From positions 1-42,915 of IMG/VR virus record IMGVR_UViG_2579779116_000016: a stretch of DNA of 42,915 nucleotides. One strand, written 5' to 3'. The position numbers and the translations under genes are program-made. The DNA comes from a virus (lineage: Duplodnaviria > Heunggongvirae > Uroviricota > Caudoviricetes). The notes under the pieces were generated by a model that worked only from the letters and a program-made list of their open reading frames with translations, searched no databases and had not been told where the DNA came from. Positions 1 to 42,915 of this stretch are shown here, piece by piece; position 1 is the first letter of the stretch; each line of letters begins with the position of its first letter.

Positions 1-1158
1 ATGCTCACCGTTAAGCAGATTGAAGCAGCAAAGCCGAAAGAAAAACCATACCGCCTACTCGATGGTAATGGCCTGTACCTTTATGTCCCTGTGTCAGGGA
101 AAAAGGTATGGCAGCTTCGCTACAAGATTGACGGTAAGGAGAAAATCCTGACCGTCGGAAAATATCCGCTTATGACTTTGCAGGAAGCAAGGGATAAAGC
201 ATGGACCGCGAGGAAAGACATCTCGGTTGGCATCGATCCGGTAAAGGCGAAAAAGGCTTCGTCTAACAACAATTCCTTTAGTGCGATTTACAAGGAATGG
301 TACGAGCACAAGAAGCAAGTCTGGTCAGTAGGCTATGCAACTGAACTTGCCAAAATGTTTGATGACGACATTTTACCCATCATCGGCGGTCTTGAGATTC
401 AGGATATTGAGCCGATGCAACTGTTGGAAGTAATCCGCAGATTTGAAGATCGCGGTGCAATGGAGCGAGCCAACAAAGCACGCAGAAGATGCGGCGAGGT
501 TTTCCGTTACGCTATTGTCACCGGAAGGGCTAAATATAACCCGGCACCTGACCTTGCAGACGCCATGAAAGGATACCGCAAGAAGAACTTCCCGTTTCTT
601 CCAGCAGACCAGATCCCTGCATTCAACAAAGCACTGGCAACATTTTCAGGAAGTATCGTATCGCTCATTGCGACCAAAGTTTTACGCTACACAGCCCTAA
701 GAACGAAAGAGCTTCGTTCCATGCTATGGAAGAACGTCGATTTTGAAAACAGGATTATCACCATCGACGCCAGTGTGATGAAGGGACGCAAAATTCATGT
801 GGTCCCGATGTCGGACCAGGTGGTTGAACTTCTCACTACGCTAAGCTCCATCACTAAACCAGTATCAGAGTTTGTTTTTGCCGGGCGCAACGATAAGAAG
901 AAGCCAATCTGCGAGAACGCGGTATTGCTTGTGATCAAACAAATCGGCTATGAGGGTCTGGAAAGCGGTCACGGATTCAGGCATGAATTCAGCACGATTA
1001 TGAACGAGCACGAATGGCCCGCTGATGCTATTGAAGTGCAACTGGCACATGCCAACGGCGGATCTGTGCGCGGGATTTACAACCATGCTCAGTATCTCGA
1101 TAAGCGCAGAGAAATGATGCAATGGTGGGCGGACTGGCTTGATGAAAAGGTGGAGTGA
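1..1158 (+). CDS. intS: Tyrosine integrase, P4-type, argW-specific (IntS-like)
   Basis: 385-aa ORF starting with ATG at base 1; translation matches my recollection of E. coli IntS of KplE1/CPS-53; position at prophage end next to tRNA-derived att. Confidence 0.88.
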   Translation: MLTVKQIEAAKPKEKPYRLLDGNGLYLYVPVSGKKVWQLRYKIDGKEKILTVGKYPLMTLQEARDKAWTARKDISVGIDPVKAKKASSNNNSFSAIYKEWYEHKKQVWSVGYATELAKMFDDDILPIIGGLEIQDIEPMQLLEVIRRFEDRGAMERANKARRRCGEVFRYAIVTGRAKYNPAPDLADAMKGYRKKNFPFLPADQIPAFNKALATFSGSIVSLIATKVLRYTALRTKELRSMLWKNVDFENRIITIDASVMKGRKIHVVPMSDQVVELLTTLSSITKPVSEFVFAGRNDKKKPICENAVLLVIKQIGYEGLESGHGFRHEFSTIMNEHEWPADAIEVQLAHANGGSVRGIYNHAQYLDKRREMMQWWADWLDEKVE

Positions 1159-1168
1159 TCCACCTTAG

Positions 1169-1618
1169 CTATCGAATGACACAAAGCCTTGAAATCCAGT
1201 GCAAAGCTTTTGGTACCTTGGTTTTGTCTAACGTCAAAGGGCAATCATCAAACTCACCTGTACGCGCATCGTTGATGATGTAGGTGATCACGCCAAACAC
1301 TGGCCGTGATGTATCCGACCCATCGTCTTTCAGCGGTAATGGCTCTCTTCTCCCATTTTCAGGGTTTTCCAGATACGGCTGCGGATGTGTCCTGTAGCGC
1401 ATAATCCTGAACTCACCATCAATAGCGCACACCAATAGAGAACCGTCTTTCGGTGTCAGCGACGAGTCGACGATAAGCATTGCACCTTTCATGATGCCAG
1501 CGCGCAGGTATGTAGAGCCCGCTATCATCATGTACGTAGCCGCCGGATGCGCGATTAGACGCTTGTCGAGCGATATGCGCTCCTCTACGTAATCTTGTGC
1601 TGGACTCGGGAATCCCAT
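1169..1618 (-). CDS. UmuD'-like protein (S24 peptidase/LexA C-terminal fold) beginning at the position of the UmuD' N-terminus; catalytic Ser/Lys apparently substituted
   Basis: 149-aa ORF with ATG and GGAGG RBS; N-terminus GFPSPAQDYVEERI...HPAATY...LIVDS...DGEF...VFGV aligns with UmuD from its Cys24-Gly25 cleavage site onward; positions of UmuD Ser60 and Lys97 appear to be Thr and Met/Arg by eye alignment; LexA box immediately upstream. Confidence 0.6.
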   Translation of the reverse strand: MGFPSPAQDYVEERISLDKRLIAHPAATYMMIAGSTYLRAGIMKGAMLIVDSSLTPKDGSLLVCAIDGEFRIMRYRTHPQPYLENPENGRREPLPLKDDGSDTSRPVFGVITYIINDARTGEFDDCPLTLDKTKVPKALHWISRLCVIR

Positions 1619-1635
1619 AACTCACCTCCGATAGT

Positions 1636-1655
1636 TACTGTATATGCATACAGTA
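1636..1655. promoter_or_regulatory. LexA (SOS) box overlapping the promoter of the UmuD'-like gene
   Basis: Perfect CTGT-N8-ACAG palindrome TACTGTATATGCATACAGTA, 18-37 nt upstream of the minus-strand start codon; candidate -35 TTGATC and -10 TAATAC just upstream on the minus strand. Confidence 0.7.
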
Positions 1656-1743
1656 TTATTGATCGGTGATGTCGATCAAGTGCTGTCTCATTTGATGTCT
1701 AGATGCTAGTATTTATGGCATTGAAAATTACAAGGAATTTGTT

Positions 1744-2406
1744 ATGAAAATTAGCAAGGGTTTGTTGGTGGCTGTGTTATGCGTTGTTGGATTGGCGTTA
1801 ACTTTCTTTATTAGAAGGGAGTATTTATCTAGCGAGAAACAAAACAAAATAAACAACTTCCAATCAGTGATGATGGACTTCAAAGACATGAACCTTGACC
1901 AGGCTGATGGTGACTATATTGTTTTTGGTGACTCTTTGATTCAGGGGATGAGCCATTATATTCTTGGCGTTAAATACGTCAACATGGGTGTTGGTGGGTA
2001 TACAGCATCGCAAATCACACAGTTAATTACATCTTCAAGCTTAGAGAAATATAAGAAAGTGCTCATTGAAGGTGGTGTTAATGATGCTCTTAGTCAATTA
2101 ACAGCAGAGCAGATAGGAAGGAAGATGAATGAAGCAATGGACGCAGCCCATGGAAAGGAGATCGTTCTTATTCAGATTCTACCATTGCTTGAATCTGCCA
2201 GGAAAGATTTCAAGAGAGTAAATGATAAAATACGTACCATCAATGCAATAACATCAAAACATTGCAAATCTATGCCTAAATGCTCTGTTGTTGATGTTCC
2301 AGAAGACTTTTTTAATGCTCCTAATGATTTTTATATGCCTGATGGAGTTCATCTTAGAAGTTATGGTTACCATGCATGGGCAAATCACATCAAACTTGCA
2401 CTATAG
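1744..2406 (+). CDS. SGNH/GDSL-family hydrolase with N-terminal membrane anchor (cargo gene in the lysogenic-conversion slot between int and tailspike)
   Basis: 220-aa ORF, AT-rich; N-terminal hydrophobic segment LLVAVLCVVGLALTFFI; GDSL block IVFGDSLIQG about 20 residues after the anchor; AAGGAA RBS. Confidence 0.7.
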   Translation: MKISKGLLVAVLCVVGLALTFFIRREYLSSEKQNKINNFQSVMMDFKDMNLDQADGDYIVFGDSLIQGMSHYILGVKYVNMGVGGYTASQITQLITSSSLEKYKKVLIEGGVNDALSQLTAEQIGRKMNEAMDAAHGKEIVLIQILPLLESARKDFKRVNDKIRTINAITSKHCKSMPKCSVVDVPEDFFNAPNDFYMPDGVHLRSYGYHAWANHIKLAL

Positions 2407-2410
2407 GTTA

Positions 2411-2430
2411 TGTGGGCCGTCAGGCCCACA
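2411..2430. terminator. Bidirectional intrinsic terminator hairpin between convergent SGNH gene and tailspike
   Basis: TGTGGGCC-GTCA-GGCCCACA perfect 8-bp stem, flanked by A/T-rich runs, located between the two convergent stop codons. Confidence 0.6.
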
Positions 2431-2433
2431 ATT

Positions 2434-4650
2434 TTATTGTATGTTTGTTATCTCTCCTGATACCATTGCTTTTATTGTCTGCCCGCCAGCTGGCTCTCCT
2501 TTGAGTACGAATCCCACCCTGCTAGTGTTTGAACCAAAAAGAAGATCTGCCCCTTTAGTTTGGTCGTAGAAAGTGTATGCATTGACGGTCCTCACCACTT
2601 GATCTGATGTTGTCACCCCAATTAATGATGTTTGACCATCCCTCTTAAGAAGTCCAGATAGTCCTGTAGATCTGCGCAAAGCGGCTGATATAGATATTGC
2701 GTAACCATCATATCCTGAAGGGGTTGATAGTTGAGCAAATCTTAGGAATTCAATACTTTGACCAGCTGCAGCAGTTGCATAGAGTCCATTGAAAATGAAT
2801 TTAGTAAATGATTGTCCACTTACGGTGGTGTCATAGCCTCTCTCGCAGGATAACGATTTAAACGCATATGTTGCATTTAGGAGTATTGTATTTTGTGATC
2901 TGGTAAGATTGTTTATCTTCATTGAAGGGAATTTCGACATATCTAGAATTCCATTTATCGATCCATTTCTGTCTGCTATGTCTATCTTTGTTTGTGTGTC
3001 TGTGTAATTGTTCTCAATGGTAAAAGATGAGAAAACACTAGGGTTGTCAATTTGATGGAATGTTTGACCAAAGTAATTACCGGAAATTGTGAGAGATTCT
3101 GGCTGGTTGTAGATGTATAGCTTGCTCTTTTCTACGTACATCCCAGTTACGCTTACGCCCTTGCAGTTTCCTATCTGTATTTCTCCGGACTCTACAGTGG
3201 AGTTGGTCAGGCTGATTCCCCATGTGTCAACGTAGACATCCTTCCCTGACTCGTGAGCATAGATAAGAGCGCTATCAAGTGTTAGCGTGTTTCCTGATAT
3301 TCCTGTTATTAACTTCGCATCAAGTCCCGCGTTTCCCTGAATCTCTATTATGTCCCACTTTAAAAAACCAGAAGCGCTTGCAACTGTTATCGAGTTGGCA
3401 CCTGCGGCAACATCTCTGGAAAGCGTCGTCTTTGGTGCATTGATGTTTATCGCTGCGGATCCAGATTGTCCGCTAGCTTGCAGGTAGCATCCCCCATGGA
3501 GTTTCACGGAGTTACCCCTCACTCTTACACCATTGAGGGTTCTTACTGAGCCGTTGATGGTTCCTGCAGTTTTCCCTGTGAACTCACCAACGATGCAGCA
3601 GATATCGACATCTGAAGATCGATGATTTACTGACTTGAAATCCCAGTGTCCATAAAACGCGTTAAGTACAACCCTGTCAGCGGCTAATGCCCCACGGGTT
3701 GAGACGCCGCCATCAATTGTAAATCCATCAACAATCTGGTCATGGTGAAGGCGGTCTCTCGATCTATCTCTTGGGTCAATGATTATATGGTGCATTGAGA
3801 TATCAGAAGATGTTGAGTTGAGGACTGTGCCGTCCTGACCAGCTCCAGACCACCTAAATCCTCTCTTGTCTACATCGAGCGTGAAACCTCCTATGCTGTA
3901 AACTCCGGCAGGGAAAGAAAGGCTCCTCATGTTTGCCTGCGCACGAGCAACACGGTTCCCCTCATCAACAGCTGCGACGTTTTCTACATCAGTGCCGCCA
4001 AACTCGAATGACGCATAGTTCATGTCAGGGAAACATACCAGATTGGCGTATTTACCTGCGGGCAACGTCAGGCTAAAAGTATTCAGATCCTGATTGGAGG
4101 AAATAACCCATTCTGATACGTTTTTTACTCCTTTCCCGTTCACGTACGTTCTGACGTGCATTCCATCTGGTACGCCACTAAAGTCTGTTTCCAGTAACTG
4201 TGTTACAGTTTCTATAGTGTAAATACGTCGAGACAAGGCGTTAGCAACGGTAGTGTCTAATGGGTCACCAACAAGAATTGATCCTGTACTCTCTCCGAGT
4301 CTTTGCTCAAGGCGATCAGGGTCATACTTCAGCACATTAGGAAAATAGAACTGCTGTGCACCATACGCATCATAAACAGCCATAGAATGGCCTTGCACAG
4401 TTACGAATTTGGCAATCTGTCCGTTATATACAGGATATCCAGCAGCGTTAATAATAATTGGTTGCGAAACAGGAACGTGAGAACCGTCTTCGTTCTCCAC
4501 ATAAACCTGAATCTGGTTTTCAGGATTTACAGGGTCAGTGTCAATTTTTCCGATATAAATTTTACCATTGGCTACGGCTTTAAAAGAACGCGCCATAGTG
4601 AAGAGTTGCGAAGGCATCGATACGATCACATTGGCTGTAATGTCTGTCAT
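2434..4650 (-). CDS. Tailspike protein: P22-type N-terminal head-binding domain fused to a distinct receptor-binding beta-helix domain
   Basis: 738-aa ORF; first ~110 residues ([11 protein letters not shown]...[33 protein letters not shown]...[12 protein letters not shown]...VLKYDPD) closely resemble the P22 gp9 head-binding domain; remainder is Gly/Ser/Asn-rich repeat typical of beta-helix tailspikes. Confidence 0.9.
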
Positions 4651-32003: not shown

Positions 32004-32720
<717 letters not shown>

Positions 32721-41667: not shown

Positions 41668-42915
41668 CTATATTGCTGAAGGTACAGGCGTTTCCATAAC
41701 TATTTGCTCGCGTTTTTTACTCAAGAAGAAAATGCCAAATAGCAACATCAGGCAGACAATACCCGAAATTGCGAAGAAAACTGTCTGGTAGCCTGCGTGG
41801 TCAAAGAGTATCCCAGTCGGCGTTGAAAGCAGCACAATCCCAAGCGAACTGGCAATTTGAAAACCAATCAGAAAGATCGTCGACGACAGGCGCTTATCAA
41901 AGTTTGCCACGCTGTATTTGAAGACGGATATGACACAAAGTGGAACCTCAATGGCATGTAACAACTTCACTAATGAAATAATCCAGGGGTTAACGAACAG
42001 CGCGCAGGAAAGGATACGCAACGCCATAATCACAACTCCGATAAGTAATGCATTTTTTGGCCCTACCCGATTCACAAAGAAAGGAATAATCGCCATGCAC
42101 AGCGCTTCGAGTACCACCTGGAATGAGTTGAGATAACCATACAGGCGCGTTCCTACATCGTGTGATTCGAATAAACCTGCATAAAAGACAGGAAAAAGTT
42201 GTTGATCAAAAATGTTATAGAAAGACCACGTCCCCACAATAAATATGACGAAAACCCAGAAGTTTCGATCCTTGAAAACTGCGATAAAATCCTCTTTTTT
42301 TACCCCTCCCGCATCTGCCGCTACGCACTGGTGATCCTTATCTTTAAAACGCATGTTGATCATCATAAATACAGCGCCAAATAGCGAGACCAACCAGAAG
42401 TTGATATGGGGACTGATACTAAAAAATATGCCGGCAAAGAACGCGCCAATAGCATAGCCAAAAGATCCCCAGGCGCGCGCTGTTCCATATTCGAAATGAA
42501 AATTTCGCGCCATTTTTTCGGTGAAGCTATCAAGCAAACCGCATCCCGCCAGATACCCCAAGCCAAAAAATAGCGCCCCCAGAATTAGACCTACAGAAAA
42601 ATTGCTTTGCAGTAACGGTTCATAAACGTAAATCATAAACGGTCCGGTCAAGACCAGGATGAAACTCATACACCAGATGAGCGGTTTCTTCAGACCGAGT
42701 TTATCCTGAACGATGCCGTAGAACATCATAAATAGAATGCTGGTAAACTGGTTGACCGAATAAAGTGTACCTAATTCCGTCCCTGTCAACCCTAGATGTC
42801 CTTTCAGCCAAATAGCGTATAACGACCACCACAGCGACCAGGAAATAAAAAAGAGAAATGAGTAACTGGATGCAAAACGATAGTACGCATTTCTGAATGG
42901 AATATTCAGTGCCAT
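41668..42915 (-). CDS. cscB: LacY-family sugar:H+ symporter, sucrose permease CscB-like (host gene flanking the prophage)
   Basis: 415-aa 12-TM ORF; translation matches my recollection of E. coli CscB; start codon at the last base of the window. Confidence 0.85.
   Translation of the reverse strand: MALNIPFRNAYYRFASSYSFLFFISWSLWWSLYAIWLKGHLGLTGTELGTLYSVNQFTSILFMMFYGIVQDKLGLKKPLIWCMSFILVLTGPFMIYVYEPLLQSNFSVGLILGALFFGLGYLAGCGLLDSFTEKMARNFHFEYGTARAWGSFGYAIGAFFAGIFFSISPHINFWLVSLFGAVFMMINMRFKDKDHQCVAADAGGVKKEDFIAVFKDRNFWVFVIFIVGTWSFYNIFDQQLFPVFYAGLFESHDVGTRLYGYLNSFQVVLEALCMAIIPFFVNRVGPKNALLIGVVIMALRILSCALFVNPWIISLVKLLHAIEVPLCVISVFKYSVANFDKRLSSTIFLIGFQIASSLGIVLLSTPTGILFDHAGYQTVFFAISGIVCLMLLFGIFFLSKKREQIVMETPVPSAI

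Follow-up and report, generated by a model that had tools for sequence, protein, structure and literature searches.

Organization of the locus

The DNA analyzed here (hereafter the window, 42,915 nucleotides in all) is a P22-like prophage of E. coli located at the tRNA-Arg gene argW. Over the first 2.5 kb it shares 99.8% identity with APEC_AN-25, with the order argW, intS, humD, SGNH hydrolase gene and tailspike gene, and its virion genes match those of CUS-3, Sf101 and their relatives. The gene of interest occupies a 149-aa open reading frame on the minus strand (1169..1618, with the ATG at 1618). It is convergent with the integrase gene and divergent from the SGNH hydrolase gene; the integrase flanks it on one side and the O-antigen/tailspike region on the other. 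A tRNA scan of the window returned no tRNA genes, and an Rfam scan of positions 1–3000 (E≤1) returned no matches. Details of the locus are given in Table 1.

Table 1. Features of the humD locus: position in the window, strand and basis of assignment
Feature	Position	Strand	Basis
Read-through tail, codons 131–149, with TAG stop (1169–1171)	1169..1228	-	Non-coding int–humD spacer in relatives
Codon 130, TTA (Leu), where relatives stop (TGA in SRY149; TAA in HK639 and P1)	1229..1231	-	3′-end DNA alignment
HumD-homologous coding region, codons 1–129 (Met1-Gly2-Phe-Pro-Ser-Pro ... Cys126-Pro127-Leu128-Thr129)	1232..1618	-	NCBIfam HumD equivalog; Pfam Peptidase_S24
Shine-Dalgarno GGAGG, 6 nt 5′ of the ATG, followed by an in-frame TGA (1624–1622)	1625..1629	-	Read from sequence
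LexA operator TACTGTATATGCATACAGTA	1636..1655	.	18/20 consensus positions; perfect CTGT-N8-ACAG core
Probable promoter: −35-like TTGATC (1679–1674), 18-nt spacer, −10-like TACTGT (1655–1650)	1650..1679	-	Conservation

A HumD-family protein that begins at the UmuD cleavage site

Against the NCBIfam equivalog model for HumD family translesion DNA polymerases (NF051876) the predicted protein scores 212.2 bits, with a cut-off of 120, and the match pairs residues 1–128 with positions 1–128 of the 129 in the profile. Scores for the neighboring models fall short of their thresholds: 94.5 bits for the UmuD subfamily (NF007621, cut-off 110) and 38 bits for the LexA equivalog (cut-off 111). Peptidase_S24 is the only domain recognized by Pfam, the same scan of the protein detecting no helix-turn-helix (HTH) domain; PHROGs assigns the protein as UmuD-like, and RefSeq labels the locus HumD family, as a pseudogene. 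Judged by these profiles the gene is an ordinary member of the phage HumD family, a kind of gene already known and annotated.

Structure prediction points the same way. The AlphaFold (AF2) model, built on 42 homologues, has a core predicted with pLDDT 84–91 over residues 21–90, and the best PDB matches returned for it by Foldseek are UmuD′ (1umu, 1ay9) and UmuD in complex with RecA (8gmt); for the two UmuD′ entries the predicted fold gives target-normalised TM-scores of 0.76–0.77 (0.76 for 1umu).

The protein starts where UmuD is cut. BLASTP aligns residues 2–119 with residues 25–139 of K-12 UmuD (40% identity, 1e-29), so that Gly2 falls on Gly25, the residue that follows the RecA-stimulated cleavage point; the sequence of UmuD′ 1umu is also matched (HMMER, E = 1e-22). 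Because an in-frame TGA stands two codons 5′ of the ATG, an N-terminal arm cannot be encoded. The sequence ‘cggaggtg’ is kept 5′ of most humD relatives, and exactly one residue, a methionine, precedes the Gly25-equivalent glycine in 115 of 123 aligned sequences (the 120 closest protein clusters together with the window protein, UmuD and P1 HumD). A preliminary description of this DNA, made from the sequence alone, had seen here an alignment with UmuD that begins at the cleavage site, and had proposed a pre-activated UmuD′-like protein lacking the arm; the alignments, the HumD model and the predicted fold all bear this out.

A LexA operator within a probable umuDC-like promoter

That description had also placed a LexA box 18–37 bp upstream of the gene, and the box is indeed there: it occupies nucleotides 18–37 counted from the A of the ATG, which leaves a gap of 17 nt to the start codon. 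It is the sole such site in the 42.9 kb of the window, and 100 shuffles of the sequence gave none. Among 80 related loci from IMG/VR a perfect CTGT-N8-ACAG is present 14–17 nt before the ATG in 61, and the P1 record carries an annotated LexA site 19 nt 5′ of humD.

The accompanying suggestion that the box overlaps a plausible promoter stands less squarely. A simple sigma-70 consensus scan found no promoter in 1619–1743, the TTGATC/TACTGT pair falling under its threshold. The layout is nonetheless conserved: TTGAxx precedes TACTGT by 17–18 nt in 47 of the 54 different upstream regions that have a box, and in 46 it reads TTGATC. The −10-like hexamer coincides with the first half of the LexA box, and the control region of E. 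coli umuDC has the same design (TTGATC-N17-TACTGTATATAAAAACAGTA). Conservation therefore suggests that this is probably an SOS promoter of the umuDC type, with its −10 element inside the operator; LexA bound there should block RNA polymerase. That humD keeps the promoter/operator layout of umuDC points to descent from a umuDC operon.

Several further features of these control regions are of note. The TTGATC of the −35 element and a second GATC in the spacer (1661–1679) are Dam methylation sites, and two or more GATC sequences lie within 30 nt of the box in 25 of the 54 regions; methylation-sensitive expression of humD is possible. In three loci (L013, L066, L073) other sequence stands in place of the left half of the LexA box, a sign that recombination has joined two sequences within the operator, and four others (L045, L052, L055, L062) carry two tandem imperfect boxes. 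A subgroup of genes that are 54–56% identical (L077–L084) sits directly behind an upstream ORF and has no box.

Loss of the Ser-Lys dyad in arm-less proteins

Three alignment methods (HMMER, BLASTP and MAFFT) agree in placing Thr36 at the position of UmuD Ser60 and Met73 at that of Lys97, and it is on this agreement that the assignment of the dyad positions rests. The substitution of both catalytic residues that had been suspected from the sequence is thereby upheld; an intact dyad and a cleavable N-terminal region had been named as the features that would speak against the proposal, and the window protein has neither.

The substitutions belong to a wider pattern. Among the 123 aligned sequences only seven retain both Ser and Lys (UmuD and P1 HumD included), and the commonest combinations are Thr/Met (52), Thr/Lys (52) and Thr/Arg (6). 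When the family is reduced to representatives at 50% identity, 50 of 52 proteins whose N-terminal arm has 15 residues or more keep Ser and Lys, whereas of those that start at the Gly25 position only 4 of 40 do so: the serine site is occupied by T, A, D, H, G and others, and the lysine site by R, C, V, L, M or Q. Dyad loss appears, from this survey, to be a family trend among arm-less forms, in line with the earlier proposal that self-cleavage is no longer needed. Pairwise comparison of the window gene with seven relatives gives dN/dS of 0.04–0.09; such low values alongside decay of the dyad indicate that the fold is strongly constrained and the catalytic residues are not. Mutagenesis by UmuD′ reportedly does not require Ser60, and loss of the dyad is therefore expected of a protein that stands in for UmuD′. 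The arm-less proteins can be read as a natural experiment, one that confirms a UmuD′-type function with no need for catalysis.

A lost stop codon

The length of 149 aa given in the preliminary description proves, on comparison with relatives, not to be native. Almost every one of the 120 closest protein clusters has 129 aa and ends in GEFDDCPVM. Where the genes of SRY149, HK639 and P1 finish CCG GTG ATG TGA/TAA, the window gene reads CCT TTG ACG TTA: Val128-Met129-stop has become Leu-Thr-Leu, after which translation would continue for 19 further residues (20 extra in all), so that in place of the GEFDDCPV(M/I)-stop of the HumD family the protein has GEFDDCPLT plus 20 residues. The last four codons hold a cluster of four to five substitutions relative to relatives. 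In SRY149 the block that encodes the tail lies between genes, and in K-12 CPS-53 it comes after intS; all seven codon differences from SRY149 within the tail are non-synonymous, and AlphaFold predicts the tail at pLDDT 34–43 with no secondary structure. From these alignments we take the 149-aa length to be an aberration brought about by loss of the stop codon; the altered tail and length are a defect of this allele and not a sign of other ancestry.

The allele is found in exactly this form in only one of 5426 complete E. coli genomes, and among the matches listed by the protein search there was no 149-aa protein, the closest listed being 129-aa proteins at 90–91% identity. Two other accounts of the extra length were considered and rejected. 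An open reading frame that crosses attP does not explain the extension: the prophage has its attL upstream of int, at argW, the chromosome carries int and humD without a break between them, and what has changed is simply the stop codon, by substitution. Nor do tblastn matches of 147–148 residues represent conserved extensions, since the alignment to vB_Ecl_MII_001 crosses a normal stop after 129 codons and that to BTP1 lies in an unannotated degraded copy.

Residues 121–129 (1232–1258 in the DNA), which correspond to the tail GEFDDCPVM, have no counterpart in E. coli UmuD; 79 of about 100 close homologues carry the motif, the model gives it low confidence, and it is the part that is damaged in the window allele. 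A comparable read-through is found in a 163-aa protein from an ENA metagenome (P0057). This HumD is 73% identical, belongs to a different subclade, and also has a stop replaced by Leu, followed by the same flank (PVM-L-DRNGTHKALH...), which suggests that at the same codon the stop was lost independently.

The alternative that weighs most is that the window copy is a pseudogene in decay, what is left of a HumD cassette, its protein inactivated or destabilised by stop loss and altered tail. PGAP flags the gene as a pseudogene with ‘missing C-terminus’; the clustered substitutions at the 3′ end, the change of the two C-terminal residues of a motif that is nearly invariant in relatives, and the occurrence of the allele in a single genome all fit such a view, as does the fact that remnants or frameshifted copies of HumD are common beside integrases (BTP1, Stx phages, mEp234, Sf101). 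Against decay, the 129 homologous codons contain neither frameshift nor internal stop, and Shine-Dalgarno sequence, promoter and operator are intact; moreover a short tail that is predicted to be disordered need not disturb the fold, and a similar read-through exists in at least one other lineage (P0057). We regard the pseudogene as a possibility to be taken seriously, though the less probable one. That the window allele still works, with a floppy tail, is the outcome toward which we lean, by a modest degree.

Comparison with known systems

P1 HumD has been described as an already activated, shorter UmuD of phage P1 (PMC7092418), and the GenBank record of P1 states that it ‘functionally complements E. 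coli UmuD′’, with a LexA site annotated for lxr/humD. The window protein resembles it in starting with MGFPSPA at the UmuD cleavage site, in 64% identity over 128 residues, in the HumD-specific C-terminal tail as far as DDCP, in the LexA box 17–19 nt before the ATG and in having no adjacent umuC. The two differ in three respects. P1 HumD keeps Ser and Lys where the window protein has Thr36 and Met73; it is of 129 aa where the window allele has been lengthened by stop loss; and its gene is carried by a plasmid prophage and shares its box with the divergent lxr, whereas the window gene lies between int and the SGNH hydrolase gene.

Closer relatives are found among argW and other lambdoid prophages. 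The ‘UmuD’ of HK639 is 93.8% identical and likewise has Thr/Met at the dyad positions, and the HumD gene of the SRY149 argW prophage is 91% identical at the DNA level, its product having Thr/Leu. In these and other such prophages the operator, the promoter and the position convergent with int are as in the window; the difference is that the HK639 and SRY149 genes are intact and still end in a stop codon (TGA or TAA) after 129 codons. With the HK639-type HumD we group the HumD of Enterobacter prophages, N15 gp26 and phiKO2 Gp23 (the last two named in record annotations).

E. coli UmuD/UmuD′ (1umu, 1ay9, 8gmt) shares the 40% identity noted above, the same fold, and the TTGATC-N17/18-TACTGT arrangement of the umuDC promoter/operator. 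It differs in the 24-residue arm, the Cys-Gly site, the Ser-Lys dyad and the umuC operon, all of which are absent from the window gene, and it lacks the additional C-terminal tail. With LexA, lambda CI and P22 C2 the likeness is confined to the S24 catalytic-domain fold, the window protein being without DNA-binding domain, cleavage site or dyad.

The likely role of HumD

No umuC-like partner had been noticed in the preliminary description, and none came to light: tblastn with K-12 UmuC found only chance matches in the window (best E = 0.37), and Pfam scans of the large window ORFs found no Y-family polymerase domain. The host, in contrast to the phage, almost always supplies one, umuC being present in 5423 of the 5426 complete E. 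coli genomes.

The reading we favor is that this HumD-family gene is an SOS-induced surrogate of UmuD′ for the host UmuC, and an accessory gene of a P22-like argW prophage; we put its probability at about 0.8. With the probable −10 region set within a LexA operator close to consensus, humD should be silent in the lysogen, kept so by LexA, and switched on by DNA damage. Once damage had removed LexA, HumD would be produced from the outset as the post-cleavage (UmuD′) form. Neither self-cleavage stimulated by RecA nor the Ser-Lys dyad would be needed, and the dyad has drifted to Thr36/Met73. By homology with P1 HumD, a HumD dimer would then bind host UmuC to give an active Pol V-like translesion polymerase, and the slow RecA-dependent step from UmuD to UmuD′ would be bypassed.

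In these functional statements – binding by LexA, partnership with UmuC and benefit to phage or host – we argue by analogy with P1 HumD, a protein 64% identical that itself keeps Ser and Lys. P1 HumD, for which the family was described in 1999 (McLenigan et al., J Bacteriol 181:7005), reportedly acts positively in SOS mutagenesis; UmuC-dependent substitution for UmuD′ is something that we take to be established for P1 HumD alone. Of the three roles put forward in the preliminary description (modulator of host translesion synthesis, UmuD mimic, cleavage-incompetent S24 decoy) it is the stand-in for UmuD′ that has a precedent, in P1; membership in a HumD family already described had been overlooked.

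A different role has been considered for the loss of the dyad: HumD as an S24 decoy or inhibitor, dead as a catalyst, which binds RecA* or host UmuD/UmuD′ and damps cleavage of UmuD, LexA or repressor, or which titrates UmuC. Heterodimers are known among UmuD-like proteins, and both dyad residues have gone while selection has stayed strong; in addition the N-terminus GFPSPAxDYVE, corresponding to the cleavage-site region of UmuD, hardly varies. The loss of the dyad is, however, expected of a UmuD′ surrogate as well, and P1 HumD, according to its annotation and reportedly in McLenigan et al. (1999), acts positively in SOS mutagenesis. PADLOC defence models gave no match, and there is no detectable similarity between HumD and the prophage's own HTH+S24 repressor (32007–32720). 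We consider an inhibitory role improbable.

Equally improbable, in our judgment, is a function that goes beyond surrogacy for UmuD′, in which a dyad-less, arm-less HumD acts for example as a modulator that binds RecA* filaments or UmuD and so tunes host SOS mutagenesis or repressor cleavage. This reading draws on the loss of the dyad in the face of strong purifying selection, on the near-invariant N-terminus and on the HumD-specific tail; the recurrent read-through of stop to Leu, in the window and in P0057, might then yield a functional variant rather than damage. The remaining candidate, an ordinary cleavable repressor or UmuD-type protein with a mis-called start, could appeal to the Pfam Peptidase_S24 match and to some relatives whose entries have 7–20 extra N-terminal residues, but it is refuted by the in-frame TGA two codons before the ATG, by the absence of HTH and dyad, and by the single Met before the glycine in 115 of the 123 sequences.

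As one more prophage copy of HumD the gene carries little weight by itself. What the present analysis adds is modest: the diagnosis of stop loss, the family-wide decay of the dyad in arm-less forms, and the umuDC-like promoter. A ready-made UmuD′ induced by the SOS response could shorten the delay to error-prone synthesis in lysogens, which bears on damage-induced mutagenesis in pathogenic E. coli.

Flanking sequences and related copies

On the divergent side of humD the SGNH/GDSL hydrolase gene (1744–2406, plus strand) encodes 220 aa with a hydrophobic N-terminus, a putative membrane anchor. The same slot, between int/humD and the tailspike gene, is filled in SRY149 by an AT3 acyltransferase gene, and in vB_Ecl_MII_001 and BTP1 by gtr genes; the SGNH/GDSL gene probably belongs to the accessory genes that modify the O antigen. 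At the far end of the window (41668–42915, minus strand) is a gene for a LacY-family sugar symporter (Pfam LacY_symp, 644 bits), which is probably chromosomal or cargo DNA beyond the prophage.

Between the stop codon of int and that of humD lies a non-coding block (1159–1234), at least part of which is common to K-12 CPS-53. It contains the palindrome CAAAGCTTTG, a candidate int terminator or Int/Xis site. A query that comprised int and its flank (1–2500) matched about 2400 E. coli genomes, many of them to about 1280–1300, and Stx-converting phages and mEp234 match only 1100–1234.

In the HK640-type phage HK140 (L088, 1860–2006) the final 30 nt of humD are overlapped by an annotated putative attP, with a dinI-like gene close by; many prophage contigs in IMG/VR stop immediately beyond humD. 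The att-proximal end of lambdoid prophages seems to be a place where accessory genes related to the SOS response accumulate. In BTP1 (L087, 1501–1930) the degraded humD is recovered by tblastn as two pieces at 58% identity, between gtrA and int, and a hypothetical ORF is annotated across it on the opposite strand. Finally, several distant matches of 245–300 aa (P0136, P0139, P0150, P0152, P0171, P0174 and others) contain two UmuD-like S24 stretches in tandem.
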